DNA of 64,000 bases from Candidatus Rokuibacteriota bacterium (GCA_016184125.1 JACPDG010000037.1:107502-171501), one strand, 5' to 3'; shown: positions 1,521-63,722, counted from the first letter of the stretch. Notes: generated by a model not told the origin, from the letters alone. A program made the numbers and translations.

Positions 1521-1643
1521 CATGGGGGGCCTCGAAGGGCCCCCCAAACCCCCCGAACGCTCGGCCACGCCCCGGGGAACCCGGGGCGTGCCTCGATCTC
1601 GCATGCGGCCGGGAGGGCCGACGTGGCGGCCAGTTCCCGTTTT
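1521..1643. repeat. GC-rich hairpin repeat element, copy A (CATGGGGGGCCTCGAAGGGCCCCCC...)
   Basis: Member of a ~110-125 bp family recurring at 13 or more loci in this window. It starts 9 nt after the npdG stop. Confidence 0.8.
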
Positions 1644-1650
1644 CTTCCTA

Positions 1651-2268
1651 TCAGGTGCGGAGCTCGGCGAGGAAGGCGCGGACCGCCTTCGTGTGGCTGC
1701 GCATCTCTACGAAGGACGCGAGACGGGCGAAGTCGAGCTCGGGAAGGAACTCGCTCGCGTCCCGCCGCTCGTACCCGGCGTCGGTCAGCCTGTAGATCTC
1801 GAAACCGCCCCTGCGCCAGAACCAGACCTCGGGAACTCCCAGGCCCTCGTAGATGGCGAGGCGATCGAGACCACGGCGGGTGATGATCACCTCGAACGCA
1901 ATGTCCGGGAATTCCTTCGCTTCCCAATCGTCGCCGAGGACGTAGCACTCATCGGGTTCGACGCCGCGCTCCTTCGCCTCCTTGCGGAAGGTCGTAGAAC
2001 CGAGGCCGTTCAAGGAAATGTCGCGATCGAGCGCATAGGCCTCGACCAACCGCCCGACGATCGACTTGACGTGCTCGTGCTTGCGCGATGGGCTCATGAT
2101 CTCGAGCGTCCCCTCGAGGTACGCCATGCGGGCGCCTGGTTGGTCGTCGCCGAACAGCTCGAGCAGGGCTTCGTACTGCTGCCAGGTGACGCCGGTCAGC
2201 AGCACCCACCGGTCGACGTCATCGGCTGGCGCGGCGGTCGTGTCGCGCTCGACAAGAGCAGGGTCCAT
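1651..2268 (-). CDS. Uma2-family (DUF820) putative restriction endonuclease
   Basis: 205 aa with a conserved Uma2 layout (YLEGTLEIMSP, CYVLGDDWE..PDIAFEVI, EVWFW). A paralog lies at 51341-51925. Confidence 0.7.
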   Translation of the reverse strand: MDPALVERDTTAAPADDVDRWVLLTGVTWQQYEALLELFGDDQPGARMAYLEGTLEIMSPSRKHEHVKSIVGRLVEAYALDRDISLNGLGSTTFRKEAKERGVEPDECYVLGDDWEAKEFPDIAFEVIITRRGLDRLAIYEGLGVPEVWFWRRGGFEIYRLTDAGYERRDASEFLPELDFARLASFVEMRSHTKAVRAFLAELRT

Positions 2269-2362
2269 GCATGTAGGGTATCAGAGCCCCGCGCGGCGGC
2301 GCTCACGCACCCGTGCTGGCCGGCGCCACCGATAGTGCTCGTGGCGGTCGGCGATGAGATAG

Positions 2363-3100
2363 TCAGGCATTAGCCGGCTGACAACCGAACGGCCACGCTT
2401 GACAATCGGCCGTCGACGTCACCAGCGCCCTCAGCACGGCGGCGACGTCGGCGAGATCCGCGAACAGCAGGTCGGAGCCGCAGGTCGCGAGGTCGGTGGC
2501 CGCGTGGTGGCCCGTCGCGACCGCCACCGCCACCGCGCCGCACGCCCGCGCGCAGTCGACATCGAGCGGCGTGTCCCCGATGATCACCACGCGGTCGAAC
2601 GGGACCTCGACGCCGGCAACGCCGCGGGCACGCGCGCATGCGATCGCCGGGAGCCTGCGGCGGTCGGCGTCGTCGGACCCGAACGCGCCGACCCGGAACA
2701 GCGGCCAGAGTCCCGTGTGACGCAGCTTCACGCGCGCGCCGCTCTCGATGTTCCCGGTGAGGAGGCCCACGATCGCGTCGGTGCGCGCCGCGAGCGCGCG
2801 CACCACGTCGGCCACCCCGGGCATGATCTCGACGCGCGCGCCGTCCCCGACGAGCGCCTCCAGCTCGAGCACGTATCGCTCGAAGCACTCGTCGAGGCGG
2901 CCCGCGATCGCGGCGTCGTCGAATCCCGCGTCGCGCAGGATGTCGAACACCGCCCGCGGATCGGTCTTGCCCCGGAAGTCGTAGCCGTCGATGCCCGCGC
3001 GCGTCCCGTAGACGGCCTCGAGGGCGCGCGCCATCGCGGCGCGGCCCGCGCCTCGCGCGCTCACCAGCGTGCCATCGACGTCGAAGAGGAAGAGCCGCAT
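2363..3100 (-). CDS. HAD-family hydrolase (phosphoglycolate phosphatase-like)
   Basis: Begins MRLFLFDVDGTLV (HAD motif I) and contains the IGDT.LDV motif. Start placed at the ATG at 3100, whose complement 'cat' is at 3098-3100. The ORF-track N-terminal extension is Arg-rich junk. Confidence 0.7.
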   Translation of the reverse strand: MRLFLFDVDGTLVSARGAGRAAMARALEAVYGTRAGIDGYDFRGKTDPRAVFDILRDAGFDDAAIAGRLDECFERYVLELEALVGDGARVEIMPGVADVVRALAARTDAIVGLLTGNIESGARVKLRHTGLWPLFRVGAFGSDDADRRRLPAIACARARGVAGVEVPFDRVVIIGDTPLDVDCARACGAVAVAVATGHHAATDLATCGSDLLFADLADVAAVLRALVTSTADCQAWPFGCQPANA

Positions 3101-3123
3101 CCGGGTCGCCACGCGCGTGACGC

Positions 3124-4593: not shown

Positions 4594-5574
4594 ATGGCCG
4601 CTATGCGCGAGTCTCCCGTGGTCGCCGCGCGCGCCGGGAAGCGGGTCAGACAGAAGGTGCTCTGGGCGCTCGCGCTCTCGTCGGTGCTGCCGCTTCTCGT
4701 GCTCGCCTACGTCGTCCACGGGTACGTCGTGCCCGCGCTCGACCCGTCGGACCGCGTCCAGTTCGTGGGCCTCCAGGCCCTCGTCTTCTTCACGCTCGTG
4801 GCGATGATCGCGGGCGGCTGGATCATCTGGAGCGTCGGCCGCACCGTGGCGCGCATGGCCGACCTCATGGCCCGCGACCCGAGCATGACGCATCTTTCGA
4901 CGCGGACGGACGAGGTCGGCGCGCTCATGACGAGCTTCTCGAAGATGTTCGAGACGATCGAGCGGCAGGCGAACGAGATCAACAGCTTCGCGATGCGCCT
5001 GGACGCCGCGTACAAGGAGCTGGAGACGACGAACGCGCGCCTGAAGGAGACCTCGTTCAAGGACGAGGTGACGGGCCTCTACAACCGCCGGTTCTTCACG
5101 ATCCGCCTCGAGGAGGAGATCTCGCGCCACCGGCGCTTCAACCACCCGGTGTCCGTCGTCCTGCTCGACCTCGACGGCTTCAAGCAGGTCAACGACGAGC
5201 TCGGCCACGCCATCGGCGACGAGACCCTCCGCGACGTGGCGCAGATCCTCATGAAGCACTCGCGGGGCATCAACGTCGTCTCCCGCTACGGCGGGGACGA
5301 GTTCGCGATCCTGCTCGTGGAGACGTCGAAAGCGGGGGCGAGACTGTATGCCGACCGCATCCGCGAGGTGATCGCCAGGCACGCCTTCACCCACAGCAAG
5401 CGGGTGACGGCGAGCCTCGGCGTCGCGAGCCTGCCCGAGGACGACGTGGCGACCGCCGAGGACCTGTTCAAGCTCGCCGACGAGGCGCTCTACACCGCCA
5501 AGCGCCGGGGCAAGAACCAGGTCGCGGCCTCGGAATCGACGGAGAAGAAGACGTGGAACGCCGCGACCTCCTGA
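4594..5574 (+). CDS. Membrane-anchored diguanylate cyclase (2 TM + GGDEF)
   Basis: Two N-terminal hydrophobic helices followed by a GGDEF domain (RYGGDEF, DGFKQVND). ATG at 4594. Confidence 0.85.
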   Translation: MAAMRESPVVAARAGKRVRQKVLWALALSSVLPLLVLAYVVHGYVVPALDPSDRVQFVGLQALVFFTLVAMIAGGWIIWSVGRTVARMADLMARDPSMTHLSTRTDEVGALMTSFSKMFETIERQANEINSFAMRLDAAYKELETTNARLKETSFKDEVTGLYNRRFFTIRLEEEISRHRRFNHPVSVVLLDLDGFKQVNDELGHAIGDETLRDVAQILMKHSRGINVVSRYGGDEFAILLVETSKAGARLYADRIREVIARHAFTHSKRVTASLGVASLPEDDVATAEDLFKLADEALYTAKRRGKNQVAASESTEKKTWNAATS

Positions 5575-6605
5575 TCGTCGACGACGACTGGCAGGTCCGC
5601 GAGGTCCTGCACGAGATCTTCCTCTCGTCCGGCTACAACTGTCACCTGGCGCAGGACGGCCGCGAAGCGCTCGAGGTGTTTCGCGCGGCCCGGCCGCCGC
5701 TCGTCGTGACGGACCTCAAGATGCCGAACATGGACGGCATCCAGCTCCTGCACGCGATCCTGGCGGAGGAGGGTGACACCGCCGTCGTCATCCTCACCGG
5801 CGCCGCCGACGTCAAGACGGCGATCGACAGCCTGAAGCTCGGGGCCTACGACTTCATCATGAAGCCGGTGAACGTGGACGAGCTGGTGATCGCGGCGGAG
5901 CGGGCGCTCGAGCGGCGGAACCTGCTCATCGAGCGGCGCCAGTACCAGGCGTACCTGGAGCTGCGCGTCGAGGAGGCCACGCGGGACCTCCAGGCCGCGT
6001 ACCAGCAGCTCCAGGACACGTACCGGGCGACCCTCGAGGCGCTCGGCTCGGCGCTCGACACGCGCGACATCGGCACCGAGTCGCACTCGCGACGCGTCCA
6101 CGGGTACTCGCTCGCGACCGCGCGCGAGTACGGCGTACCGGAGGAACAGCTCTCCGACGTCGCGCACGGGGTGCTCCTCCACGACATCGGCAAGATCGGC
6201 ATCCCGGACGCCATCCTCCTCAAGCCCGGTCCGCTGACGCCGGAGGAATGGACGGTCATGCGCCGCCACCCCGAGATCGGCAAGCGCCTGATCGAGCGCA
6301 TCCCGTTCCTGCGCGGCGCGGTCCCGGTCGTCTACCATCATCACGAGCGCTGGGACGGCAGCGGCTATCCGCTCGGGCTCAAGGGTGAGGAGATCCCGCT
6401 CGGCGCGCGCATCTTCTCGGTGGTGGATGCGTTCGACGCGATGACGTTCGACCGCCCGTACTCCAAGGCCATCCCGATCGACGCGGCGAAGGGGGAGATC
6501 CGGCGCTGCTCGGGCTCGCACTTCGATCCGCTCGTCGCCGAGGCCTTCTTCCGCGTCCCGGAGCCGCTCCTCGCCGAGATCCGCCGCAAGAGCATCGAGC
6601 CCTGA
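5553..6605 (+). CDS. Response-regulator receiver + HD-GYP c-di-GMP phosphodiesterase
   Basis: REC domain (LLIVDDD..VTDLKMP) followed by an HD-GYP domain (HDIGKIGIP, HHERWDGSGYP). It overlaps the cyclase gene by 22 nt. Confidence 0.85.
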   Translation: MERRDLLIVDDDWQVREVLHEIFLSSGYNCHLAQDGREALEVFRAARPPLVVTDLKMPNMDGIQLLHAILAEEGDTAVVILTGAADVKTAIDSLKLGAYDFIMKPVNVDELVIAAERALERRNLLIERRQYQAYLELRVEEATRDLQAAYQQLQDTYRATLEALGSALDTRDIGTESHSRRVHGYSLATAREYGVPEEQLSDVAHGVLLHDIGKIGIPDAILLKPGPLTPEEWTVMRRHPEIGKRLIERIPFLRGAVPVVYHHHERWDGSGYPLGLKGEEIPLGARIFSVVDAFDAMTFDRPYSKAIPIDAAKGEIRRCSGSHFDPLVAEAFFRVPEPLLAEIRRKSIEP

Positions 6606-6659: not shown

Positions 6660-6745
6660 CAAGTTCCTGGCCGGTGACTCTCTTTACCCCCCACGCTCGG
6701 AACCGGCCCGGGACACCCGGGCCGGTCCTCGACAGGCCGCCGGGT
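6660..6745. repeat. Partial (right-half) copy of the hairpin repeat family; convergent-gene hairpin
   Basis: ACGCTCGGAACCGGCCCGGGACACCCGGGCCGGTCCTCGA matches the right arm of the family. It contains the stem CCGGCCCGGG/CCCGGGCCGG. Confidence 0.5.
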
Positions 6746-8226
6746 CAGCCGAGCTCGGCGGTGAGCGCGCGGATGGTCGCCCGCACGTCCTCGACCGTAT
6801 CCGTCGGGACGCCGGCCTGGAGCGCGCTCTCGACGAGGACGCCAAGCTTCTCGACCTGCACGCGCGCGGACTCCCGGTTGCCCATCTCGGCGACTTCGCG
6901 GATGACTGCCGCCCGGTCCTCGACCAACCGCTGCAGCGCGTCCGCGAGCAAGGCTCCCGGCTCCTGGCGCCGTGACTCGTCGTCGCCGGCGTAGGTCAGC
7001 GCACGCAGCAGTGCCTTCACCGCGTCCTCGTGCTCTCCGGCTTCCAGCCGGCGCATCCCGGTCTTCGTGTACGCGAGCCAGAGGCGCCGGGCGATCTCCT
7101 GGTACCGGTCGGGATGCAACGCGTCGCCGCTCTCGGTCAGCAGGCTCTCCGCCTGATCGAGTGTGGACGCGACCTCCCACTCACGGCCCTGCTGGGTGTC
7201 GCGAATCGCCGCGGCGGTCAGCTGACCGATCTCCGAGCCGAGCACCTCGGCGTGGAGCTCGTCGAAGGCCTCGCGCGTGGCCGCCGGAAGCCCGGGGTCG
7301 GCACGCGCCTCGACGAGGAGGCCGCGGGCGGCCGCGAACTCCTGGCGGCGCACGAGGCCGCGGATCACGCTCTCGCTCGCCGACCAGTAGCCGGTGTTCA
7401 CCGCCTCGCGCGCAGCGGCAATGCCCTCGTCGCCCGGGCGCTCGTTCTGCGCGCGCTCGAGCCAGGTCCGTGCCTCGCGCAGCAGGGCGAGGCGGCGCTC
7501 GTCGGGGAGCCCGCGACACCGCGTGAGGATGTCGCTCGCGACGGAGAGCGCGAGCGACGCGAGCTGCACGCGGAACGTCTCGCGCTCGGCTTGGGGCGCC
7601 ACGTCGATGGCGCGCTCGAGCGCGGTGCGCGCGGCCTCGTGATCGCCGAGCCGCTCCCGGGCGCGACCGACGAGGTTCCAGAGGGCGGCCTGCTCGCGGG
7701 GACTCGGCGCAGCCTCGTCGCCGGCGGCGAGCGCCGCCGTCGCCTGCGTCACGACATCGACGAAGCGCCCGCCCTCGAAGAGCGCCTGGCACTGCTCGAA
7801 GGGCGGCAACCGCGCGGGCGGCGGCGTGGGGCCGGCGTCGCCGGCGTCGGCACCGGACGGCAGCTCGAGCTGCGGCGTCGGAACCGCGTCCGAGGGACGG
7901 CGCGACACCGCGTCCGGGGAAACGACGGTCGACGGGCGCGCTCCACCGCGCGGGCGGCGACTCGGCACGGGGCCGGCGCGCCGCGGCATCTCCGACGCCG
8001 CCTCGCCGCCGCGCGACTCGTCGGCGACGTCCGGCGCCCGGCCAGCGGGTTCGGGAGCTGCGAGCTGCGTGATGGATCGCGGGGGCGCCGGCCGCGCCGC
8101 GGGACGGGGGCGCGGACGCCGGCTGTCGACCTCGCGCGTCGGCCAGAGCAGCTCGAGGACCGAGAACAGGATGAGCCCGGACGCGATCAGCGTGCCGGCC
8201 AGCACGAGGACGACGTCGATCAACAC
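6745..8226 (-). CDS. Hypothetical membrane-anchored TPR-like repeat protein
   Basis: Start placed at the in-frame GTG at 8226 (VLIDVVLVLAGTLIASGLILFSV is a TM helix). The protein then has a Pro/Ala-rich linker and a C-terminal alpha-helical TPR-like region. The ORF-track N-terminal extension overlaps the Gfo/Idh/MocA gene and is rejected. Confidence 0.45.
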   Translation of the reverse strand: MLIDVVLVLAGTLIASGLILFSVLELLWPTREVDSRRPRPRPAARPAPPRSITQLAAPEPAGRAPDVADESRGGEAASEMPRRAGPVPSRRPRGGARPSTVVSPDAVSRRPSDAVPTPQLELPSGADAGDAGPTPPPARLPPFEQCQALFEGGRFVDVVTQATAALAAGDEAAPSPREQAALWNLVGRARERLGDHEAARTALERAIDVAPQAERETFRVQLASLALSVASDILTRCRGLPDERRLALLREARTWLERAQNERPGDEGIAAAREAVNTGYWSASESVIRGLVRRQEFAAARGLLVEARADPGLPAATREAFDELHAEVLGSEIGQLTAAAIRDTQQGREWEVASTLDQAESLLTESGDALHPDRYQEIARRLWLAYTKTGMRRLEAGEHEDAVKALLRALTYAGDDESRRQEPGALLADALQRLVEDRAAVIREVAEMGNRESARVQVEKLGVLVESALQAGVPTDTVEDVRATIRALTAELG

Positions 8227-11000: not shown

Positions 11001-12614
11001 CTGAGCACCATCACCGTCCTCAACATCAATGACGATCCCGCACGGCAGTACGTGATCCGGCGCGTCTTGCAAGCCGCGGGGTTTCACGTCGTCGACGCCG
11101 CGACCGGCCGCGAGGCCCTCGATCGACTCGCCCTCGTGCGGCCCACGGTCGTCGTGCTCGACGTGAAGCTGCCGGACCTCGACGGCTTCGAGGTGTGCCG
11201 GCGGATGAAGGCGAACGCGGCGACGTCGTCCATCCCGGTGCTGATGTTCTCTGCGGTGCTCGTCGAGGACGCCGACAAGATCAAGGGGCTCGAGCACGCC
11301 GACGCCTATCTCGCCGAGCCGGTGCCTCCACCGGTGCTCACCGCGACGGTCCGGGCGCTGGCCCGCATGGCGCAGGCGGAGGCGGAGCGCTCCGAGCTCC
11401 TGGCGAGCCAGCGCATGGAGCGGGCGGCGAGCGCGCTCGTCGACGTGGGACGCCGTCTCATGACGACGTGGGACCGGATCGAGCGCAGCCGGATCATCGT
11501 CTCGGCGCTCGTCGACGTGTACCAGGCGCGGCGCGGCGCACTGCTCACGCTCGACGCGTCCCGGACGGAGCTGCGATGCGCGGCGGCCGCGGGCGAGGAC
11601 GAGGTGACCGCGCTCGTCGGCAAGACGCTCCTCGTGGACGAGGCGCTATCGGGACGTGCGGTGGCTGAGCGACGACCGCGCTGGACGGCCGACATCCTCG
11701 CGGAGCCGGACCTGAAGCTGCCCCGATGGATCCACACGATGTTCCGGACGGGCTGCCGCGCGTGGATCAGCGTGCCGCTCGTCGTGAACGACGACGTCCT
11801 CGGCGCCGTCTCGCTGGGCGACACGACCGGCCGCGTCTTCCGCAAGGACGAGATCCAGCTCCTCGAGGCCTTCGCGGCGCAGGCCGCGCTCGCTCTCCGC
11901 AACGCCAGGCTATGGAACCAGCTCGCCAAGTCCGGTGAGCGACTCGAGGCGCTGTCCCGCCGGCTGCTCGAGGTCCAGGAGGCGGAGCAACGCCGGCTCG
12001 CCCGCGAGCTGCACGACGAGATGGGCGCGGCGATCAGCGCGGTGAAGATGGAGCTCCAGGCGCTCGGGCGCCGCCCGGAGCTCGCCCCGGCGGCGCGCGA
12101 TCTCGATCGGACCGTCACCGCCGTCGACGGGCTGCTCCAGCGCGTCCGTCAGGTGTCGCTGGACCTGCGCCCGTCGCTCCTGGACGACTACGGTCTCGAG
12201 CCGGCGCTCCGCTGGTACGTCGACCGCCAGTCACAGCGTTCGCGGGCGGATATCCGCATCGCGTCCGACGTCGGGGAACTGCGCTTGCCGACCGGGGTCG
12301 AGACCGCGTGTTACCGCGTCGCGCAGGCCGCCATCACGAACGCGCTCCGCCACGCCGCCGCGAACCGGATCACGGTCGAGCTCCGTCTCGCCGGCGACGA
12401 CCTGAAGCTCACCGTCCGGGACGACGGCGCCGGATTCGATGTCGCGGCAGCGCGGGCCCGCGCGCGCCGCGGCGAGAGCCTCGGCCTGCTCGCCATGGAG
12501 GAGCGCGCCGGCCTCGCCGGCGGCACGCTCGAGATCGAATCCGTCGCGGGTCACGGCACGGAGCTGCGCGCCTCGTTTCCCGCGCGGCCCCCACGGCCGG
12601 CGACGCCCCGATGA
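11001..12614 (+). CDS. Hybrid sensor: REC + GAF + HisKA_3/HATPase_c histidine kinase
   Basis: REC (DD...K), GAF, and a NarX-type kinase core (ELHDEMG, HATPase). No ATG or GTG precedes REC strand beta1 (ITVLNINDDP). The only in-frame candidates are CTG at 11001 and GTG at 11052, which would truncate REC. The start is therefore uncertain. Confidence 0.7.
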   Translation: MSTITVLNINDDPARQYVIRRVLQAAGFHVVDAATGREALDRLALVRPTVVVLDVKLPDLDGFEVCRRMKANAATSSIPVLMFSAVLVEDADKIKGLEHADAYLAEPVPPPVLTATVRALARMAQAEAERSELLASQRMERAASALVDVGRRLMTTWDRIERSRIIVSALVDVYQARRGALLTLDASRTELRCAAAAGEDEVTALVGKTLLVDEALSGRAVAERRPRWTADILAEPDLKLPRWIHTMFRTGCRAWISVPLVVNDDVLGAVSLGDTTGRVFRKDEIQLLEAFAAQAALALRNARLWNQLAKSGERLEALSRRLLEVQEAEQRRLARELHDEMGAAISAVKMELQALGRRPELAPAARDLDRTVTAVDGLLQRVRQVSLDLRPSLLDDYGLEPALRWYVDRQSQRSRADIRIASDVGELRLPTGVETACYRVAQAAITNALRHAAANRITVELRLAGDDLKLTVRDDGAGFDVAAARARARRGESLGLLAMEERAGLAGGTLEIESVAGHGTELRASFPARPPRPATPR

Positions 12615-13261
12615 CCGTCCGCGCGCTCCTCGCGGACGACCACGCCCTGTTCCGCGCCGGGTTGCGGAAGCTGCTCGAGACCTTCGAGGGCGTCGAGATC
12701 GCAGGCGAGGCCGCCGACGGCCACGAGGCGCTGGAGCTGGTCGAGCGGTACCGCCCGCATCTGCTGATCCTCGACATCGCGATGCCCGGGCTGAACGGCA
12801 TCGAGGTGACGGCGCGCGTCGTGCGCGAGCATCCGAGCACGCGCGTCATCGTCCTCTCCATGCACTCCGCCGAGGAATATGTCCTCCGCGCGATCCGCGC
12901 GGGCGCCGACGGATACGTCCTCAAGGACGCGACGCCCGCGGAGCTCGAGGAGGCGATCCGGACGGTCAGCCGCGGGCACACGTACCTGCACCCGGCCGTC
13001 TCGAGACACGTCGTGGAGGACTACGTCCGGCGGGTGTCGCGCGAGGCGGACCCGGTGGAGCGCCTGACGCCGCGACAGCGCGAAGTGCTCCAGCTCATCG
13101 CCGAGGGGCACACGACGAAGGGCATCGCGCAGAAGCTCGGCCTGAGCGTCAAGACCGTCGAGAGCCACCGCGCGCAGCTCATGGAACGTCTGGAGATCCA
13201 CGACGTCCCGGGTCTCGTCCGCTTCGCGATCCGGTGCGGGCTGATCAAGCCCGAGGATTGA
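12611..13261 (+). CDS. LuxR/NarL-family response regulator
   Basis: REC domain plus a C-terminal LuxR HTH (LTPRQREVLQLIAEGHTTKGIAQKLGLSVKTVESHR). Its ATG overlaps the kinase stop as ATGA. Confidence 0.85.
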   Translation: MTVRALLADDHALFRAGLRKLLETFEGVEIAGEAADGHEALELVERYRPHLLILDIAMPGLNGIEVTARVVREHPSTRVIVLSMHSAEEYVLRAIRAGADGYVLKDATPAELEEAIRTVSRGHTYLHPAVSRHVVEDYVRRVSREADPVERLTPRQREVLQLIAEGHTTKGIAQKLGLSVKTVESHRAQLMERLEIHDVPGLVRFAIRCGLIKPED

Positions 13262-13263
13262 CC

Positions 13264-13385
13264 TCATGGGGGGGCCCGACATGGCCCCCGGCTCGAATCG
13301 GGGAATCCCTGATGCCCACCTCGGGGACCTCCACGCTCCGACTGGGGGATCGCCCGGATTGGCAGCAGGGCGCCGGAGCGCGAGG
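13264..13385. repeat. Hairpin repeat family, degenerate copy B
   Basis: CATGGGGGGGCCCGACATGGCCCCC head, 2 nt after the LuxR regulator stop. Confidence 0.6.
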
Positions 13386-27809: not shown

Positions 27810-27831
27810 ACGCGTCGGATGGTCGGAGCCT

Positions 27832-29731: not shown

Positions 29732-29753
29732 GCGCCTAGAGTAGCATCGGTCT

Positions 29754-41701: not shown

Positions 41702-41705
41702 GAGA

Positions 41706-41808
41706 GGAGCCCGTGAACGAATCCGGTGCCCGAGCCGCGTCCCGGGTCCCCCGGGACGCGTGCGAGCGACCGGGGGGGCTTGGGGGGGCTTCGATAGTCC
41801 CCCCCATG
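41706..41808. repeat. Hairpin repeat family, copy F (inverse orientation); supplies the udk start codon
   Basis: ..CTTGGGGGGGCTTCGATAGTCCCCCCCATG. The terminal CCCCCCATG is the ATG of the uridine kinase gene. Confidence 0.75.
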
Positions 41809-47553: not shown

Positions 47554-48716
47554 AGGTTGATCGACACGGGGGGGAGCGGTCGCCGCGACCGGCCGCGCCC
47601 GGGGGCACGGCGCTCACCGTGCGGCGCATCTACAACGCCGATCGGTGGAACTGCATCGTCCAGGGCTTCCCGCGGTACGACCTCAGGCAAGGGTTCGAGT
47701 GGGGCGAGCTGAGGGCCGAGCAGCGCTGGCGTCCCGTCCGGTTCGCGGTCTTGCGTGACGCGGAACCGGTCGCCGCGTGCGCGGTGCTCTGCCGCGCGAT
47801 CCCCGGCGCGGGCGGCATCCTCTATGTCCCGCGGGGGCCGCTGTTCCGGTCCGACGTTCCCGCCGGTCTCGATCGCGTCCTCGAAGAGCTGAGGGCGCTC
47901 GGTCGGCGCACGCGCGCGATCGCCGTCCGGATCAGCCCGCCCGTGCCGATGGACGACACCGACAGCATCGCGTGCCTCGACCGCAGCGCGCTCGCGACCG
48001 TGCCGGAGCCCTGGACGACGTGGAACTCGCCGCGCTACGTGCAGGTGCTCCATCTCCGGCGTCACGAGGCGGAGCTGCTCCGCGGCGTCCGCCGGCGGTT
48101 CCGCGAGTACATCGCCGCGGCACCGCGCCGGCGGCTCGTCATCGAGCCGTCGGACCGTGACGACGACCTCGTCGAGTTCCACGCGCTCATGCTGGACGCC
48201 GGGCGCATGAAGGGCTTCCCGGTCCGCGATCTCGCCTGGTACCGCGCGCTCGTGCGTCACTACCGGCCGGAACGTGCCGTCACGCTGCTCGTCGCCCGCG
48301 AGCAGGACACGATGGTCGGCGGACTGCTGGCGGTTCGCTTCGGACGCAAGAGCTACATGCTCTACACGTCGGTGCGCGGGACCCTCGCGGAGTCCGCCCG
48401 CCACCACGTCGCGCCGGCGCTCTGCTGGGAGTACAGCCGGCGGGCGCGCGCCGAAGGATGCGAGCTGGCCGACCTCGGTGGCACCGGCGTCGGCATCCCG
48501 CCGCAGGAGGGGGACCCGGGCTGGGGTCTCTACCACTTCAAGGCCGGGCTCGGATGCTCCCTGGAGACGTTCGTCCACCTGCGCGACATGGTGCTCCGGC
48601 CGCTCCTCTATCGCCTGTTCCGCGCCTGCGAGGCGCAGCTTCTGCCGCCCCTGTGGCGGCTCGTCGCCCGTGCGCCTCGAGCATGGCCGGCGCGCCTCGT
48701 CGGGGCGGCGGCGTGA
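47550..48716 (+). CDS. FemAB-family (GNAT-fold) protein, exosortase-locus subfamily
   Basis: Acyltransferase fold with the LYHFK...C motif near the C-terminus. ATG overlaps the GT2 stop (ATGA). Confidence 0.75.
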   Translation: MKVDRHGGERSPRPAAPGGTALTVRRIYNADRWNCIVQGFPRYDLRQGFEWGELRAEQRWRPVRFAVLRDAEPVAACAVLCRAIPGAGGILYVPRGPLFRSDVPAGLDRVLEELRALGRRTRAIAVRISPPVPMDDTDSIACLDRSALATVPEPWTTWNSPRYVQVLHLRRHEAELLRGVRRRFREYIAAAPRRRLVIEPSDRDDDLVEFHALMLDAGRMKGFPVRDLAWYRALVRHYRPERAVTLLVAREQDTMVGGLLAVRFGRKSYMLYTSVRGTLAESARHHVAPALCWEYSRRARAEGCELADLGGTGVGIPPQEGDPGWGLYHFKAGLGCSLETFVHLRDMVLRPLLYRLFRACEAQLLPPLWRLVARAPRAWPARLVGAAA

Positions 48717-50377: not shown

Positions 50378-50380
50378 CCG

Positions 50381-52046: not shown

Positions 52047-55000
52047 TCAGCGGAGCCGGTAGCGCTTGACCTCGTAGGGCCCGAAGCGGTCGGACAGGAT
52101 CGTGCCTTCGCCCGTGAGGCGCGTGGCGTCGCCGGTGGCTGAGGCGGCAGGCCCGAGCCCCGAGACCTCTCTCGCCGGGTCGGTGAGGGTCAGCGTCACC
52201 TGGAGCGGGCTCGACCTTGTGTTGTACGCGAAGAGGTACCGCGTGCCGTCGGGCATGCGCTTGCCGAGCATGCGGATCGCACCGCCGCTCGACTCGCGCG
52301 CGACGACCGGCGCGTCCGGTGCGAGCAGCACCGGCTCGAGCGCCTTGATCTCCTTCGTCACGGTCACGAGGTCCTGCCAGCGCTGCTCGCGCTCGGCGGG
52401 ATCCTTGACCCACCCGAGCCCGCGCGCGCCGAACGACCAGTAGAAGAGTCCCTTCGCGCCCTCGACGATGGCCATCCAGCTCATCGTCCGGAGCTCTTCC
52501 CGGCTCGGCCACCCGGCCGCCTTGGTCAGCGGAAAGTACTGGAGAACCATCCACACCGGGCGACTTCGCATGACGGCGTCCTGGCCGAGACGTGTCCAGT
52601 CGCCGACCATCGCGAGGTTGTTGTCGCCGCCCGGCTTCGTGATCGGGTACGGGTCGAGCCCCATGACGTCGAGCGCGTCGCGCCAGAGCGGCGCCTGCCG
52701 CTGCCAGCCGTCGCCCAGGACGCCGTACGTCACCGTGCCGGGCGCCGCCCGCCTGAGCTCCCGGAGCTGGCGAAAGACCTTCGGCACCATCTCCGCGGTG
52801 CGCTCGTCCATCGTGTAGAACCCGGCGAGGCCCGGGTGGCTGGCGAGCGTCCTGCCGACCCAGCGGTTGAGGGCGTCCTCGCCGTCGCGCGCGGCCGGGT
52901 ACCGGAGCTTGCGGTACTGCCGGTCGTCCTCGTAGTAGAAGTTCACCGTCTGCAGGTAGTGGATGCCGCGCGTCTTCAGATCGTCCATGTAGGTCTGGAG
53001 CGCGGGGATCGGCGCCGCTCCGAGCCAGTAGTTGATGAGCATGTTGATCGGCGCCTGCGCGATGCGCTCGTTGCCCCATCCGCCCCGCCCGCTCGCGTAC
53101 TCCGCCCGCGCCGTCGAGTAGCCGCTCGTGTTGTAGAGACCGAGGATGAACGCGGGCTTGCCGTGGAGGTACGCGACGTTCTCCTCGTCGTACCAGACGT
53201 GGAGCGTCTCCCGCATGCGCGCGGGCGCCTTCACGATGCGGTACTCCGGATGGCGAAATACCTCGCGGCCGTCGGCGCCCACGAGCTCCGTACGGACGAG
53301 GTACTCGCCGTTGGGGATCGACGCGGCGTCGAGCTCGACGACGAGGGGCGCGCGGCCGCGCCCGAGGGGCGCGCGGCCGCGCCCGAGGCCAGCGTCCTTC
53401 GTCGGCACGGCAGCGGTTGCCGGATGCTCGCGTCGCGCGCGCACGGTGCCTCGGCTCTCGTCGACGAGCGAGACGCGGACGCGAGCACCGCCGAGCCCGT
53501 CGCCCGAGGGGCGCGCGGCCGCGCCCGAGGGGCGCGCGGCCGCGCCCGCGTGCACCGCGACCGCGATGCGCACGGTCTGTGGGCGGTCGTCGAACAGCAT
53601 GCCGCGGTAGTTCGGGTAGAGGAGGAAGGACTCGACCGGCGGGCGCTTCATCGGGGCGAGCACGACGTCGTCGAACCACGCGGTGCCGTCCGGCCTGCCG
53701 TACGCGCCGGCGGTGACCCGGTACGTCCCGGCGTCCTCCACGGGGATCGCCAGGCGCGCCAGCCGCGTCCAGCCCGACGTCCCGCGCGCGATGGGCGTGC
53801 AGTGCCACCAGTTGATCCGCGGCCGACCGTCCAGGCAGAGCCTCACGCCGGTCCGGTCGGACGCCCCGCCGAGGCCTTCGCTCTTCACCCAGCCCTCGAG
53901 CACGTAGTAACCCGCCTCGAGCGTCACCACCTGATCGGCCGCCGGAACGTATCGCGCGGTCCCGGCGTTCGCGAGACGCAGCGCCGCCTGCCCGGACCGC
54001 GCGCCGGTCGCAAGCGCCCACAGGGTGTCGTCGAGCGTCACGCGCCAGCCGTCCACGGTCTTGCCGGCCGACCCCTCGAAGCCCGGGTTCTTCAGCACGT
54101 TCGCCGCGGGCTCGAGCGTCGGCAGCGCCGTCAACCCGCCCGGCTGGGCGAGCGCCGCGCCGGGCAACGCCACGAGCGCGGGGACGAGCAGCCAGGCGGC
54201 GAAGCGCGAGGGCGCGGACCCGAAGGGCCACTCGAGAGCCCGCCCCTCGGGCGCGGCCGCCGCGGGTGCGCTCGCCTCGTCGCGCGCGGGCAGCATGCGA
54301 TGCAGGACGATCGAGACGAACACGACCATCCAGAACATCTTCTCGTACTGCGCGCTGATGAATGCGCCGGACACCATGAACCCGACGAGCCCGCTCCGGA
54401 GCCCCTCGGCCCAGCCAGCGAGCTCGCGGCCCTCGCGGTCGCCGCCGACGCGTGTCGCGCGGCCGAAGGTCCGCAGCACCTGCCCCACCATGAGCAGGAA
54501 GACGGCGAGCACGGGCAGGCCGAGCTCGGCCGCGAGCTCGAGGTAGCTGTTGTGGGCGATGTACTCGCGCCCCAGGTCCGGCGCGTACGCCACGGACAGC
54601 GACTTGAAGTTCTCCGGACCGACGCCGGTGAAGGGCGCGTCCGCGATCATGCGCAGTCCCGCCCAGAAGAGCGCGATGTGCGCGCGGTTCGACTGCTCGA
54701 GGCCGGGTGGCTGCGGGCTCGTCGGGTCGAGCGTCGCGACCGCGCGCTCCGCGAGGCCCGTCGGCAGGATCAGCGCCGCGACGATGATCACCACGAGTCC
54801 CGAGACCGTCGCCAGGAGGCCGCGTCGCCGGTACGCGTACATCGACGCGGCGACGACGAGGCCGAGGAAGCCGCCGCGGGACGCCGTGAGGAGGAGCTCG
54901 AGCACGAGCACCAGCCCGGCGCCGAACCACAGCCGGCGGCGCCAGACCGTCGACTGCAGTCTCGCGATCGCGAACGCGAGCGGGATCACCAGCACGAGGT

Positions 55001-55457
55001 TCGCGGCGAAGTAGTTGGTCTCGTACAGGCCGGTACCGAGACGGCTGTCGTAGCGGATCGACTGGCGGAACGCATACGGGAAGACGATCACGAACGTCAG
55101 CGCGATCGTGTACACGACCCGCCGGAGGTCCTCGTGCGTCCTCACGCTGCTGGCCACGAACGGCAGGAAGAGCAGGAACGCCAGGTAGCGCGAGATCGGC
55201 AGGAGGCCGCTGCCCGAGAGCGCGCCGGCGAAGAGCACGCCCGCATAGAACACGACGAACAGCCGCGCCTGTGGCGACGACCACAGACTGCCGCCACCGT
55301 CACCGCCGGCGATCCGGAGGGTCGCCCACGCGAAGCCGATCATTCCCAGCAGCTTGATGACCGTGAAGTCCGGGAACACGAGGAAGCTGTCGGCCAGCTT
55401 CAGATGGGGGTTCGTCTCGAACGGCATGATCAGGATCATCAAGAGCAGGAGCGGCAT
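52047..55457 (-). CDS. O-antigen ligase/polymerase-like (Wzy_C) membrane domain fused to ~700-aa periplasmic glycoside-hydrolase-like domain
   Basis: The N-terminal ~420 aa carry many TM helices with Wzy_C features (SRGGFLGL...HNSYLE). The C-terminal region has carbohydrate-binding-like and TIM-barrel-like segments. Internal tandem repeats encode GRGRAPLGRGRAPL and PSGAAARPSGAAARPSG. Confidence 0.7.
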   Translation of the reverse strand: MPLLLLMILIMPFETNPHLKLADSFLVFPDFTVIKLLGMIGFAWATLRIAGGDGGGSLWSSPQARLFVVFYAGVLFAGALSGSGLLPISRYLAFLLFLPFVASSVRTHEDLRRVVYTIALTFVIVFPYAFRQSIRYDSRLGTGLYETNYFAANLVLVIPLAFAIARLQSTVWRRRLWFGAGLVLVLELLLTASRGGFLGLVVAASMYAYRRRGLLATVSGLVVIIVAALILPTGLAERAVATLDPTSPQPPGLEQSNRAHIALFWAGLRMIADAPFTGVGPENFKSLSVAYAPDLGREYIAHNSYLELAAELGLPVLAVFLLMVGQVLRTFGRATRVGGDREGRELAGWAEGLRSGLVGFMVSGAFISAQYEKMFWMVVFVSIVLHRMLPARDEASAPAAAAPEGRALEWPFGSAPSRFAAWLLVPALVALPGAALAQPGGLTALPTLEPAANVLKNPGFEGSAGKTVDGWRVTLDDTLWALATGARSGQAALRLANAGTARYVPAADQVVTLEAGYYVLEGWVKSEGLGGASDRTGVRLCLDGRPRINWWHCTPIARGTSGWTRLARLAIPVEDAGTYRVTAGAYGRPDGTAWFDDVVLAPMKRPPVESFLLYPNYRGMLFDDRPQTVRIAVAVHAGAAARPSGAAARPSGDGLGGARVRVSLVDESRGTVRARREHPATAAVPTKDAGLGRGRAPLGRGRAPLVVELDAASIPNGEYLVRTELVGADGREVFRHPEYRIVKAPARMRETLHVWYDEENVAYLHGKPAFILGLYNTSGYSTARAEYASGRGGWGNERIAQAPINMLINYWLGAAPIPALQTYMDDLKTRGIHYLQTVNFYYEDDRQYRKLRYPAARDGEDALNRWVGRTLASHPGLAGFYTMDERTAEMVPKVFRQLRELRRAAPGTVTYGVLGDGWQRQAPLWRDALDVMGLDPYPITKPGGDNNLAMVGDWTRLGQDAVMRSRPVWMVLQYFPLTKAAGWPSREELRTMSWMAIVEGAKGLFYWSFGARGLGWVKDPAEREQRWQDLVTVTKEIKALEPVLLAPDAPVVARESSGGAIRMLGKRMPDGTRYLFAYNTRSSPLQVTLTLTDPAREVSGLGPAASATGDATRLTGEGTILSDRFGPYEVKRYRLR

Positions 55458-60610: not shown

Positions 60611-61684
60611 ATGGCCCGCATGATGACGCCCGATCCCGTGCACGCGTTTCACGGTCGCGTCGTCCGCGCTCGCGAGGTCGACAAGCGCTGGGACCGCTTC
60701 GTCGAGCGCCACCCGAACCCGACCGTCGGTCATCTCTCCGCCTGGGGTCGTATCGCCGAGCGGACGTACGGCCACGAGCCGGTGTATCTCACGGCCGAGG
60801 AGGACGGCGAGGTCCTCGGTGTCCTGCCGCTCGTCCTGATGCGCAGCCGCCTCTTCGGCCGCCGGCTGGTGTCCATGCCGTTCCTCGACTACGGTGGCGT
60901 GGTCGCCGAGCCCGGCCGCCGCGTCGAGCAGGCGCTCGTCGACGCGGCGCTCGCGGCCGGGCGCGACCTCGGCGCCGCGACCATCGGCCTGAGACAGTTC
61001 GAGCGCGCCGACGTGCCCTACCCCGTCACCGACGACCGCGTGACGATGCTCATGCCGCTCACGACGGAAGAGCGGGCGTGGAAGGTGTTGCCCTCCGAGC
61101 GCAGGAATCGCGTCCGCAAGGGCGAGAAGCACGGTCTCGTGGCGACCTGGTGCGGCGCCGAGGCGCTCGAGGAATTCTACGAGGTCTTCGCGGTCAACAT
61201 GCGCGACCTCGGCTCACCCGTTCACAGCCGGCGCTTCTTCGAGACGATGCTCGCCGAGCTCCCGGGCACCGCGCGCGTGGTGCTCGCGCGCGATCGGGGC
61301 GCGCGCGTGCTCGGCGCCGCCGTCTGCCTCTTCTTTCGCGACACGATCATGGTGCCCTGGGTCTCGTCGCTGCGGGAGGCGTTCGCGCTCTGCCCGAACT
61401 TCGTCCTGTACTGGGACATCATCCGCTTCGGCTGCCGCAACGGCTACCGGGTGCTCGACCTCGGGCGATCGTTCCGGAACGCCGGCACCTTCGAGTTCAA
61501 GCGCCAGTGGGGCGCCCACCCGCACACGCTGCCGTGGGTCTTCGTCGACGTCGTGCCCGGCGCGCCGCCGCCCGTCGACCGGGACCGCAGCCGCTTCGAG
61601 CGCCTCATCGCGCTGTGGAAGCGTGTCCCCGTCCCTGTCGCCAACGTGGTGGGTCCGTGGATCCGCGGGCAAGTGCCCAACTGA
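60611..61684 (+). CDS. Second FemAB-family protein (exosortase-locus subfamily)
   Basis: Paralogous to the FemAB-like gene at 47550-48716 (VLPLVLM, LDLGRS, FKRQWGA). The start is uncertain: Met residues at 60581, 60611 and 60620. Confidence 0.7.
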   Translation: MARMMTPDPVHAFHGRVVRAREVDKRWDRFVERHPNPTVGHLSAWGRIAERTYGHEPVYLTAEEDGEVLGVLPLVLMRSRLFGRRLVSMPFLDYGGVVAEPGRRVEQALVDAALAAGRDLGAATIGLRQFERADVPYPVTDDRVTMLMPLTTEERAWKVLPSERRNRVRKGEKHGLVATWCGAEALEEFYEVFAVNMRDLGSPVHSRRFFETMLAELPGTARVVLARDRGARVLGAAVCLFFRDTIMVPWVSSLREAFALCPNFVLYWDIIRFGCRNGYRVLDLGRSFRNAGTFEFKRQWGAHPHTLPWVFVDVVPGAPPPVDRDRSRFERLIALWKRVPVPVANVVGPWIRGQVPN

Positions 61685-61687
61685 CTT

Positions 61688-61985
61688 CATGGGGGGCCTC
61701 GAAGGGCCCCCCAATCCCCCCGACACTCGCAACCGGCCCGGGGGACCCGGGCCGCTGCTCGAGTTCGCTCGGCGGACCGCAATCATGGGGGGCCTCGAAG
61801 GGCCCCCCAATCCCCCCGACACTCGCAAGCGGCCCGGGGGACCCGGGCCGCTGCTCGAGTTCGCTCGACGGACCGCAATCATGGGGGGCCCCGACATGGC
61901 CCCCCATACCCCCCAGCGCTCGGCGCCGTCCCGGGAAACCCGGGACGGCCCTCGATGCCACGATCCGGTCACCGGCTCTGAACGC
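61688..61985. repeat. Tandem array (3 units) of the hairpin repeat family
   Basis: Two near-identical units with a TCGAAG loop variant and one unit with a CCGACAT loop variant, ending 2 nt before the GT2 ATG. Confidence 0.85.
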
Positions 61986-61986
61986 G

Positions 61987-62919
61987 ATGGCGCCGTCCGT
62001 CTCGATCTCCGTCCTCAACTACCAGCGGCGGGAGGCCCTGCGCGAGGCGCTCGACGGCGCACGGCGTCAGCACGGCCCGGTCCTCGAGCTCATCGCCGTC
62101 GACAACGCGTCGGCCGACGGCAGCGCCGAGATGGTCCGCGACGACTTCCCGGACGTGCGTCTCGTCCGCCTGCCCGAGAACGTAGGCGCGGCGGCGCGCA
62201 ACGCCGGCGTGGCGGCCGCCAAGGGCGACATCGTCGTCACCATCGACAACGACGTGCGCTTCACCACGCCGGACGACGTCGAGCGGGCGGTCGAGGCGTT
62301 CGCGCGGCACCCGGGGGCCGCGGTGGTGAACTTCATGATCGTCGGGGCCGACGGTCGCCTGTCGCGGCGCGACTGGTGCCACCCGCGCGACCCCGACCGC
62401 TGGGCCGAGCACGAGTTCCTCACCGATTACGTCCTCGAGGGCGCCTCCGCGTGCCGGCGGGACGCGTTCCTCGCGACGGGCGGCTACTGGCCGCCCTTCT
62501 TCATCGGCCACGAGGGCTGGGACCTGGCGCTGCGGCTCATCGGCGCCGGTCACGATCTCGTCTACACGCCCACGGTGCGCGTGCGCCACCTGGCCGACCC
62601 GAGCGTGCGGCCGTCGAGCCGCATCTACTACACGTTCGCGCGCAACGCGGTGTGGGTGGCGCTTCGCCACCACCGGCCCCTGGCGGCGGCGCGGTCGATC
62701 GCGCAGGACCTCGCGCTCATGGCCTTTGCTGCGGCGCGCGCCGGCGAGATCCGCGCGTGGGCGCGCGGCGTGCGCGACGCCGTCCGCGGCGCTCCGGTCG
62801 CACTCGCCAGCCGCCAGCCGCTGCCGCCCTCGGCCTCCGCGCGACTGGCCGCGATTCGAGCGCTCAAGCCGGGCGTGCTCGCACGCGTCCGGCGGCACGT
62901 TCGTGAGCGACTGATCTGA
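61987..62919 (+). CDS. Glycosyltransferase family 2
   Basis: VSISVLNY, AVDNASADGS, and the DND motif (TIDNDVRF). Confidence 0.8.
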   Translation: MAPSVSISVLNYQRREALREALDGARRQHGPVLELIAVDNASADGSAEMVRDDFPDVRLVRLPENVGAAARNAGVAAAKGDIVVTIDNDVRFTTPDDVERAVEAFARHPGAAVVNFMIVGADGRLSRRDWCHPRDPDRWAEHEFLTDYVLEGASACRRDAFLATGGYWPPFFIGHEGWDLALRLIGAGHDLVYTPTVRVRHLADPSVRPSSRIYYTFARNAVWVALRHHRPLAAARSIAQDLALMAFAAARAGEIRAWARGVRDAVRGAPVALASRQPLPPSASARLAAIRALKPGVLARVRRHVRERLI

Positions 62920-63240
62920 TGGGGGGCCCCGACATGGCCGACATGGCCCCCCATACCCCCCGACGCTCGCACCCGGCCCGGGGAACCCGGGCCGGGGCTC
63001 GACACTGCGCTCGGCCGGGCCCCGACATGGCCCCCCATACCCCCCAACGTTCGCCGGGCCCGGGATGAACCCGGGCCCGTCTCTACCTCGCGCTCGCTCG
63101 GGCGGTGCGACTTCGCGCCCTCCCCGTCTCGACCTCGCGCTCGCTCGGGCGGTGCGACTTCGCGCCCTCCCCCGACGTTCGACCGGCCCGGGGTGAGCCA
63201 GGTCCGCGCCGATTCGTTCACGAGCTCCGAGGCGGGCTCC
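62917..63240. repeat. Tandem array of the hairpin repeat family with an internal 47-bp duplication
   Basis: GATGGGGGGCCCCGACATGGCCGACATGGCCCCCCATACCCCCC.... It also contains CTCGCGCTCGCTCGGGCGGTGCGACTTCGCGCCCTCCCC twice. Confidence 0.8.
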
Positions 63241-63384
63241 CGGCGAGCGCTTGACGCCGCCGCGCGATCGGCGGTTAATGAAGACCTCTTCGGTCGCCCA
63301 ACCTCGCGCCGTGCGCGAGATGCGCCCTCCCGGCATCGCGGCCGGGCCCAGCGCTGGAGGGATCGGGCCGTGACGTCCCGAACG

Positions 63385-63615
63385 ATGACGCTCCGCGACC
63401 GCATCACGGCATTGCTCAGGACACGCACCGGTGAGGAGTTCTGCGCCGCCTGCATCGCGAAGATGCTCGACGTCCGCCACAAGAGCGCTCACCAGGCCGC
63501 GCTCAAGCTCGAGGCGTCCGTCGCGTTTCGCCGGCAGTACGGGCGCTGTTCCACGTGCGGCAAGACGCGGCTCGTCGCCACGGCGCTCGGGCCCACCGCG
63601 GCGCCGCCGGATTGA
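63385..63615 (+). CDS. Small hypothetical zinc-ribbon protein (C-x2-C...C-x2-C)
   Basis: 76 aa (MTLRDRITALL...CAAC...CSTC) flanked on both sides by repeat arrays. No homology support. Confidence 0.35.
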   Translation: MTLRDRITALLRTRTGEEFCAACIAKMLDVRHKSAHQAALKLEASVAFRRQYGRCSTCGKTRLVATALGPTAAPPD

Positions 63616-63618
63616 AAT

Positions 63619-63722
63619 CATGGGGGGCCCGACATGGCCCCCAAGCCCCCCCAACGCTCGCCGGGCCCGGGGTGAACTCGGCCCCGTCTCGACCACCCGA
63701 TTCGTTCACGGGCTCGAGCGGG
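63619..63722. repeat. Hairpin repeat family, copy L
   Basis: CATGGGGGGCCCGACATGGCCCCCAAGCCCCCCCAACGCTCG...CGATTCGTTCACGGGCTCGAG. Confidence 0.75.

Follow-up and report, generated by a model that had tools for sequence, protein, structure and literature searches.

The stretch of DNA described here, referred to below as the window, comprises 64,000 nucleotides of one strand from a Candidatus Rokuibacteriota bacterium (GCA_016184125.1 JACPDG010000037.1:107502-171501). Its G+C content is 71-74% throughout. Its genes include those of an F420-dependent oxidoreductase, an ATP-dependent DNA ligase, a polysaccharide deacetylase, udk, a flippase and glycosyltransferases of families GT2 and GT4. Its GT2 and DNA-ligase proteins are identical to proteins (P0001 and P0121, respectively) of a 250,648-bp contig from a 'Candidatus Rokubacteria bacterium' metagenome-assembled genome (MAG). 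Between the genes of the window, and in several cases inside them, lie copies of a structured repeat element of 85-125 bp built around two hairpins. This element is the subject of the present work.

Copies of the element in the window

A search with an nhmmer profile made from 14 seed copies recognised 22 units, the best with an E-value of 7e-26, distributed over 13 loci (Table 1). These are exactly the 13 loci at which an earlier note on this DNA had placed a repeat family. The modules attributed to the family in that note, namely a head hairpin with a CCGACAT or TCGAAG loop, a C6 tract, a CGCCCCGGG hairpin and a CGATTCGTTCACGGGCTCC tail, are all present. Repeat finding also recovers both orientations, the tandem arrays and a 21-bp internal repeat. 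The exact head palindrome ATGGGGGGCC-N7-GGCCCCCCAT occurs three times in the window and never in 100 dinucleotide shuffles of it. Tandem periods of 96, 98 and 102 bp are confirmed, and array periods of 85 and 86 bp are also present.

Table 1 Units and arrays of the repeat element in the window
Position	Strand	Unit	Genes at the site	Remarks
1516..1615	+	single unit (head hairpin, C6 tract, hairpin 2)	4 nt past the TGA (1510-1512) of the F420-dependent oxidoreductase gene 868..1512; convergent to Uma2 gene 1651..2205(-)	profile match; DNA fold -34.6 kcal/mol, z -4.3
6684..6747	+	hairpin-2 module only (profile positions 33-98)	between convergent genes 5553..6605(+) and 6745..8226(-)	
13260..13372	+	diverged unit, good head, degenerate second half	overlaps the stop of response-regulator gene 12611..13261	
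24046..24357	+	head-to-tail array, 3 units	between the KaiC-like ATPase start (24025) and ATP-dependent DNA ligase gene 24247..25878(-)	
27822..28192	-	array of a partial unit and two 102-bp units (97% identical)	13 nt past the stop of GAF/HD gene 25956..27809	partial unit 27822-27920 is 92-93% complementary to parts of the GT2 copy
29750..29870	+	full unit with tail (GATTCGTTCACGGGCTCCGAG)	between TatA-like gene 29186..29731(-) and sigma-54 activator gene 30135..31220(-)	both strands fold, z about -4.8
41701..41810	-	full unit	fills the whole spacer from the polysaccharide deacetylase stop (41699-41701) to udk	
44855..44969	+	in-frame unit	near the 3' end of Phosphodiest-family gene 43707..44990	
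46266..46505	+	composite unit: degenerate head, extra hairpin, hairpin 2 split by a 21-bp repeat (x4.7)	inside GT2 ORF (open reading frame) 46156..47553	profile-recognisable part 46457-46499+
50171..50278	-	unit	at the 3' end of Polysacc_synt flippase gene 48713..50377	ORF reads through and stops 100 nt further
61682..61992	+	array, 3 units	from the TGA of gene 60611..61684 to the start of GT2-family gene 61987..62919	units 1 and 2 98% identical, loop TCGAAG; unit 3 of another subfamily, loop CCGACAT, with tail
62912..63231	+	array, 2-3 units (third partial, with tail)	begins at the stop of gene 61987..62919	
63613..63726	+	full unit with tail	ends ~10 nt before the stop of convergent gene 63736..63999(-)	

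Architecture and secondary structure

Loci outside the window were gathered from a genome collection with the exact head+C6 pattern, and 69 distinct copies from many genomes were aligned (alignment A2). In this alignment and in that of the window copies, a unit consists of three or four modules. It begins with a 5' junction of 9 nt that is AT-richer and mostly holds TGA, TAG or TAA. The nearly invariant head hairpin, (A)TGGGGGGCC-N6-7-GGCCCCCCA(T) with a G6C2/G2C6 stem, comes next and is followed by the C6 tract. Downstream are a CGCTCG box, hairpin 2 (13 bp, for example GGAGCGCCCCGGC-GAA-GCCGTGGCGCTCC), the sequence CTCGA and a variable stretch of 10-25 nt. Part of the copies carry in addition a tail that ends with GATTCGTTCACGGGCTC-(T/C)GAG or TTCCGACAGGCTCC-TAG, that is GGCTC-(T/C)GAG or GGCTCC-TAG; conservation ceases beyond this point. 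The modules are partly independent of each other, as headless repeats of the hairpin-2 module exist and heads are also joined to other downstream sequences. In 13 copies, the downstream half does not match the hairpin-2 pattern. These odd copies were checked as candidates for a 'master' copy, in which an ORF would separate the head from hairpin 2 and the tail, and the idea was rejected, the adjoining genes looking ordinary.

The unit has no terminal inverted repeats (TIRs). Its left end (TACATGGGGGGCC...) and right end (...TTCACGGGCTCTGAG) are not inverted copies of each other, the head end TACATGGGGGGCC is unrelated to the reverse complement of the tail end AGCCCGTGAACG, and the inverted repeats of the unit are its internal hairpins. 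T(G)AG or TAG is found at both boundaries and is constant within each subfamily, the empty sites available for comparison being only ~80% identical. On the 5' side, a T(G)AG or GTAG-like motif lies 3-4 nt from the head; the unit that it adjoins has two hairpins and ~100 nt.

Both hairpins are predicted independently by RNAalifold, and single copies fold at z -4.3 to -4.9 on either strand. Within hairpin 2, nine of the 13 pairs show double (compensatory) changes, with 90 compensated cells compared to 24 +/- 3.7 in shuffles. Pairing reaches 92%, as against at most 57% when the partner is slid. Judging from this covariation, the stem of hairpin 2 is kept as a structure, not as a sequence. Compensated variants of the head also exist in the window (GCGGGGCC/GGCCCCGC at 50178). 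In the sense strand of hairpin 2, G.U (G.T) pairs (6) are rarer than A.C pairs (29) and therefore give no support for selection on a sense RNA. A C.T mismatch at A2 columns 69/82 (CCCCGGC...GCCGTGG) is conserved in 27 of the 69 copies and alternates with the perfectly paired form CCCCGGG...CCCGGGG. For the G-quadruplex or i-motif structures that the earlier note thought possible, the minus strand offers at least four G-runs per unit, in competition with the very stable duplex hairpins.

Empty sites and effects on genes

Three loci (L101-L103) are syntenic to the window at ~36-59 kb, with ~80% nucleotide identity. Fourteen further orthologous exopolysaccharide (EPS) clusters (L104-L117; ~117 kb, 70-76% GC) come from a metagenome scan for nearer relatives of the GT2 locus; its best match has 71% identity and no elements, and the scan serves as an unbiased negative control. 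The closest relative (JGI sample 3300056388, ~90% amino acid identity) was compared through its proteins and gene spacing. No unit is found in L101-L103 or in L104-L117. Since the syntenic relatives lack every comparable copy, the copies are insertions and not ancient protein segments.

The clearest in-frame case is the GT2 gene. Its ORF (46156-47553) starts at an ATGA overlap with the stop of the upstream GT4 gene and encodes 465 aa, compared to 385-390 aa in nine orthologues (64-88% identity). The orthologues align end to end with the window ORF apart from a single 80-aa block, located between the transmembrane anchor (FWLAA..YTW.GYPL) and the P.VSVIVAAYNE motif of the catalytic domain. The junction peptide predicted for the insert is ...RRRELMGGLSMPPTPLR... 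The fused protein is a prediction, since the NCBI annotation places the start elsewhere, at 46528 (P0001), giving a protein of 341 aa that has lost the transmembrane anchor. The hairpin-2 loop of this copy contains 4.7 repeats of a 21-bp unit, GCGCGGACGCACCCGTGCGGT, at 46364-46460, which translate as (ADAPVRC)n. Its sister copy, inverted at 27822-27920, has about one such unit (27871-27920); the element itself therefore hosts a micro-expansion.

In the phosphodiesterase gene, a block of ~33 aa (GGPDMAPTPP...; predicted junction peptide GSGGPDMAPTPPALGSAPGSPGR) is inserted in-frame, 15 codons ahead of the GTGA stop/start overlap. This ancestral overlap (44987-44990) is retained, so that the stop does not derive from the element. 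At udk, the ATG (41806) is the element's CCCCCCCATG, in other words the CAT of the element head read on the opposite strand. The orthologue in L101 has six additional N-terminal codons and an unrelated 170-bp spacer, both of which the element replaces in the window. Homology of the flippase to its orthologue stops where the inverted element begins, and the ORF continues to 50377. The conserved part of the ligase ends with ...FATKGR at residue 517 of 543, and its orthologues mostly have 518-523 aa. In the window, the final 26 codons of the gene, together with its TAG, are part of unit 3 of the array at this site, and the public annotation keeps this element-derived tail (543 aa). Only 11 nt separate the ligase stop from the next gene in the closest relative, which leaves no room for the 312-bp array found in the window.

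The earlier note had read the udk start, the ligase stop and C-terminal codons, the flippase tail and the GT2 insertion without ORF break as products of the element, and the comparison with orthologues bears this out. One correction concerns the phosphodiesterase, called there alkaline-phosphatase-like, whose tail it took as element-derived: the insertion is internal and the stop is ancestral. Donation of start codons holds for udk and is otherwise anecdotal: the antisense ATG of the head was tried as a general start donor and rejected, with one case among 106 copies outside udk.

Array size also varies at a given site. On two contigs of one MAG (AR7), arrays with flanks 97-99% identical measure 270 and 363 bp. 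An all-against-all flank search among the collected loci yielded only occupied or copy-number-variant sites, and no empty site.

Placement relative to genes and reading frames

Placement was analyzed for 141 arrays from the window and the collected loci, with genes called by our codon-score heuristic. The elements lie in 32 convergent, 49 co-directional and 1 divergent contexts (n=82), compared to a background of 85, 487 and 79. Gene 3' ends facing an element are at a median of 5 nt from it; 100 of 163 lie within 15 nt and 49 run into the element. The median for gene 5' ends is 92 nt. Co-directional contexts show a modest bias, with 32 sense and 17 antisense. None of the 34 multi-unit arrays has mixed orientation.

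Of 106 copies, 81 have a stop-like triplet no more than 8 nt ahead of the head ATG, with -7 as its most frequent position, and TGA/TAG-N4-ATG is the commonest left junction (40/106). In 50 of the 106, the triplet is the real stop of a well-coding ORF on the same strand. The motif is also found, out of frame, at intragenic copies (GT2: cgTGAGctcATGG; L001: TGAGTACATGG). It is therefore part of the element or of its target, and not merely the stop of a gene.

ORFs running through elements were also observed in other MAGs (L024, L070, L088 and L001 among them), where Pfam domains span the inserts and thereby identify each as one gene; here the evidence is domain interruption, the orthologue comparison covering the window genes. 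The interrupted domains include a P-type ATPase E1-E2 domain (260 aa on a 181-position profile), a hydantoinase C-domain, His_Phos_1, DUF748 and that of an HgmA-like protein. All six intragenic copies in sense orientation are read in the same frame, xGGP.MAP(H)TPP, and both antisense internal copies read WGA(I/M)SGPP. In this small sample (6 + 2 copies), the frame drifts beyond the head through 1-nt indels. The C-terminal read-throughs of the flippase and the ligase use other frames.

Distribution

In the genome-collection scan, the exact head+C6 pattern matched more than 100 genomic stretches. Among the matches listed, ~85% of the loci are labelled Rokubacteria, Rokuibacteriota or Methylomirabilota. 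The element is present in at least 30 MAGs, nearly all of these same three labels; the rest, among the matches listed, are one unlabelled and two with other labels. The MAGs stem from projects on soil, groundwater and sediment, and some of their contigs measure 0.8-3.3 Mb. Since the same element occurs in many independent MAGs, it is not an assembly artefact. The head pattern had no match in viral contigs. In the literature on Rokubacteria repeats, palindromes and intergenic sequences, we found no description of it. The element is best read as a structured repeat family specific to Candidatus Rokubacteria and, within the literature searched, previously undescribed.

Coding capacity, RNA families and terminators

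The CGCTCG box lies at a distance of 34 to 38 nt from the head ATG, in 1-nt steps, with mod-3 classes of 33, 15 and 11 copies. As this distance varies by single nucleotides, there is no conserved reading frame. A search of the whole window against Rfam at the gathering threshold identified only a tRNA, and lowering the cutoff to E<=10 for 61600-63800 (2.2 kb) gave chance-level matches only. Hairpins followed by a T-run were found at none of the copies in 44001-64000 (20 kb); the head of the element is followed by ACCCCCC. Integron attC sites were also considered and rejected on conserved synteny with relatives and the presence of both orientations, a judgement made without a formal attC model.

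Comparison with known repeat families

By analogy, the family is best described as REP/BIME-like in location, BOX-like in modularity and Rickettsia palindromic element (RPE)-like in its in-frame invasion of genes. The earlier note had called the copies MITE-like (miniature inverted-repeat) or REP-like (repetitive extragenic palindrome). This stands in so far as they are inserted, small, multi-copy repeats that occur in either orientation and form arrays, with 22 units of 85-125 bp in 64 kb and no conserved frame. It does not stand for the strict classes: the element lacks the TIRs of a MITE, and its arrays are head-to-tail and never alternate as REP-derived BIMEs or REPINs do. It is likewise set apart from MIRUs by the lack of a phased ORF and from terminator-like repeats by the lack of a U-tract.

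The likeness to RPEs is one of behaviour, sequence homology not being expected given 72% GC. Both are ~100-150-bp palindromic, non-autonomous repeats, found in intergenic DNA as well as in-frame in unrelated housekeeping genes, to which they add a peptide without loss of the ORF. In R. conorii, nearly half of the 44 RPE copies are in ORFs (PMC10969869). The Rokubacteria in-frame copies are in genes for a GT2, a phosphodiesterase, the A-domain of a P-type ATPase, a hydantoinase, His_Phos_1 and DUF748. The hosts differ, a free-living soil phylum with 72% GC on one side and a reduced, AT-rich endosymbiont on the other. In addition, the Rokubacteria copies are mostly extragenic and tight to stop codons, only their head is in a constant frame (1-nt indels occur downstream), and they form head-to-tail arrays.

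REP, BIME and REPIN sequences, associated with the RAYT enzymes of the Y1 HUH class, are also GC-rich hairpins located at gene 3' ends, between convergent genes and close to stops. They too reach hundreds of copies, occur in clusters and have no ORF, no TIRs and no clear target-site duplication. A short motif that may be comparable stands beside the hairpin, the tetranucleotide GTAG in REPs and T(G)AG or a GTAG-like motif here. However, the Rokubacteria unit is 3-4 times longer, with two different hairpins and a tail, whereas a REP palindrome has 20-40 nt. Its arrays are strictly direct (0/34 mixed), whereas BIMEs alternate and REPIN doublets are inverted. Finally, no RAYT gene was found in the Rokubacteria sequence examined (the window and ~1.5 Mb of loci, with weak queries).

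The A-B(n)-C organization of BOX elements resembles the head, hairpin-2 module (x1-3) and tail seen here (L028, L013, L041, L053, L088, L100). As with BOX, SPRITE and ERIC sequences, different subfamilies cluster together and insertions are at gene 3' ends. There is no sequence similarity to these families, and the host phylum is another one. Unlike SPRITEs, the element has no U-tracts, and unlike ERIC and the BOX A/C complementarity, it has no TIRs. MIRUs share with it a high-GC host, tandem units of 50-100 bp between operon genes and junctions overlapping the flanking stops and starts. They are oriented with the operon and contain small ORFs in phase. In contrast, the Rokubacteria units are found in both orientations and do not conserve a frame.

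Other repeats and neighbouring genes

A second, unrelated repeat in the window is a near-perfect palindrome of 48 bp, AGTTCGAGC(A/C)AC(A/G)ATCGA...TCGAT..GCTCGAACT. One copy (797-845) begins 2 nt past the TGA of the F420 ligase gene. The other (45366-45415) is in-frame in the GT4 gene 44987..46159, contributes 17 aa (SSSHDRAPGRSIVARTL) and shows a 3-bp duplication (CTC/GAG) relative to L101. No copy of this palindrome was found in the 183 collected loci.

Two Uma2/DUF820 genes (PF05685, PD-(D/E)xK 'putative restriction endonuclease') are located at 1651-2205(-) and 51341-51925(-), the first of which abuts an element. The second is missing at the same position in L101 and on the contig of the closest relative, and therefore looks like a lineage-specific gain. 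A GC-rich spacer of 412 bp (22723-23134) separates the KaiC-like ATPase gene from a poly(A) polymerase-family gene; it measures 41 nt in the closest relative. Within it are 12- and 24-bp tandem repeats (22810-22887); the hairpin family is not represented. Perfect 21-bp tandem repeats (CGAGGGGCGCGCGGCCGCGCC) occur at 53342-53388 and 53501-53565 in a gene for a 1136-aa Wzy_C/O-antigen-ligase-like protein, 52047..55457(-). The paralogous sigma-54 activators 30135-31220(-) and 34888-36324(+) give rise to long inverted repeats (I1-I3 and I10, 72-85% complementary). They flank a segment with a response regulator and a sugar transferase, where an exosortase (EpsH)-type EPS cluster begins.

Origin and spread of the element

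The family is insertional, amplifying, non-coding and structure-constrained. It has spread by insertion and, in some lineages, that of the present genome among them, by local tandem amplification. We explain it as a non-autonomous, non-coding, structured repeat element, and we give this explanation a probability of about 0.75. Mobilisation would occur in trans, by an enzyme encoded elsewhere. As to the mechanism, we tentatively favour, as the leading possibility rather than a settled one, recognition of the hairpins in single-stranded DNA by an activity of the HUH/RAYT or IS200/IS605 type, with insertion next to T(G)AG. It is favoured because the unit has no TIRs, its stems covary, T(G)AG is found at both boundaries and the arrays are strictly direct, including those of mixed subfamilies such as 61682-61992. 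An HUH-type enzyme could also re-target the 3' end of the element itself. Copies persist mostly where they are least harmful, against stop codons at gene 3' ends. Occasional copies survive inside genes, in the one frame that encodes a Gly/Pro-rich peptide (xGGPDMAPHTPP...). As side effects, C-terminal tails and stop codons are replaced, a start codon is occasionally donated and loop-like inserts are added to the encoded proteins; mRNAs would probably also acquire very stable 3' hairpins.

Several points weigh against this explanation. The mobilising activity is one that we purely infer. The window did not yield a gene for a transposase, RAYT or TnpB, and neither did ~1.5 Mb of collected loci, searched by tblastn with weak, approximate IS200-, IS608- and RAYT-like queries. 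The boundaries of the element are approximate, and the empty sites have ~80% identity only. Invariance of the head in alignment A2 is partly produced by construction, because the loci were collected with the exact head pattern, and the gene calls at the loci depend on the codon-score heuristic. T(G)AG at both sides fits equally well a 3-4-bp target-site duplication by a DDE enzyme. Lastly, covariation of the stems and placement at 3' ends also fit a host-selected function as RNA or DNA. The sole weak tblastn match to the IS200/IS608/RAYT-like queries (L053) was rejected as low-complexity Gly/Ser/Thr sequence.

The first alternative, which we rate as rather unlikely though serious, is that the copies are classical cut-and-paste or copy-in MITEs, moved by a DDE transposase that duplicates a preferred 3-4-bp target (GAG, TGAG or TAG), as in several IS families. 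A direct repeat of T(G)AG or TAG does flank both ends. Moreover, comparison of the 48-bp palindrome with the empty site of L101 reveals a clean duplication of 3 bp (CTC, or GAG in the opposite strand), so that a GAG-preferring activity duplicating 3 bp is plausibly present in the genome. However, the main family has no terminal inverted repeats, its flanking motif is constant within subfamilies instead of varying by insertion, and no DDE gene was seen in the window or, with weak queries, in the collected loci.

An alternative that we find as probable as the DDE one views the copies as primarily host-functional 3'-end modules, kept by selection and not just selfish. They could be terminators without a U-tract, hairpins for mRNA stabilisation or RNase processing, or modulators of termination and recycling close to the stop. 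This would agree with their position directly after stops (median 5 nt), their near absence from divergent promoter regions, their very stable folds with stems maintained by compensation and the modest sense bias in co-directional contexts (32 vs 17). In E. coli, REPs within ~15 nt of stops reportedly lower translation of the upstream gene via ribosome stalling, a result ascribed to Liang, Rudd and Deutscher in 2015. Terminator-like repeats (SPRITE) and effects of ERIC sequences on 3' mRNA stability are known as well (PMC10969869). On the other hand, the orthologous genes of relatives manage without elements, both orientations are present, and copies are also found within overlapping-gene operons and ORFs, where termination would be harmful. 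Also against such a role, U-tract terminators are absent from the copies in 44001-64000, and the pair counts in hairpin 2 (G.U 6 vs A.C 29) bear no signature of sense-RNA selection.

More speculatively, and to our mind improbable, the element, together with the 48-bp palindrome to which it is unrelated, could be the trace of a hairpin-guided insertion system of Rokubacteria, so far undescribed, that homes to T(G)AG, and hence to stop codons. The two are linked by their (T)GAG flanks and their in-frame tolerance. The enzyme might be HUH/RAYT-like or another nuclease, two Uma2/PD-(D/E)xK genes being present in the window. With such a system, landing 3' of a stop triplet, or regenerating it, would be nearly harmless. 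If the element re-targeted its own 3' end, head-to-tail arrays of mixed subfamilies would be accounted for, and Gly/Pro-rich inserts would be seeded in proteins.

A reading as MIRU-like mini-ORFs, translationally coupled to flanking genes (stop-N4-ATG) and encoding a small conserved peptide (MGGPDMAPHTPP...), is largely refuted and very improbable. It draws on the frequent TGA/TAG-N4-ATG junction (40/106), on units of exactly 96 or 102 bp and on a few copies whose frame stays open between the head ATG and the tail TGA, but the distances of CGCTCG (34-38 nt) and CTCGA from the ATG differ in steps of one nucleotide, the units are found in either orientation to transcription and array periods of 85, 86 and 98 bp exist. 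That the copies are assembly artefacts or ancient protein segments, the two outcomes that would have undone the earlier note, is refuted: repeats are hard to assemble in short-read MAGs and array copy numbers may be wrong, but at least 30 MAGs, the products of independent projects and assemblers, contain the element, with contigs of 0.8-3.3 Mb among them, and the orthologues of GT2, ligase, phosphodiesterase, flippase and udk do not have it.

Implications

If our explanation in terms of a mobilised, non-autonomous repeat holds, the element offers an independent case of selfish DNA inside protein-coding genes, classically represented by the RPEs of Rickettsia. The host here belongs to an uncultured phylum of free-living soil bacteria with large, very GC-rich genomes, and the in-gene repeats are documented in 64 kb of one genome. 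Such elements mislead gene callers, as seen with the NCBI annotation, in which the GT2 is shortened to 341 aa and the ligase lengthened to 543 aa. They inflate or fragment MAG assemblies and create lineage-specific tails and inserts in proteins. They also provide a very specific sequence marker for Rokubacteria contigs. Finally, their coupling to stop codons would make them a clean system in which to set target specificity against selective filtering of sites.

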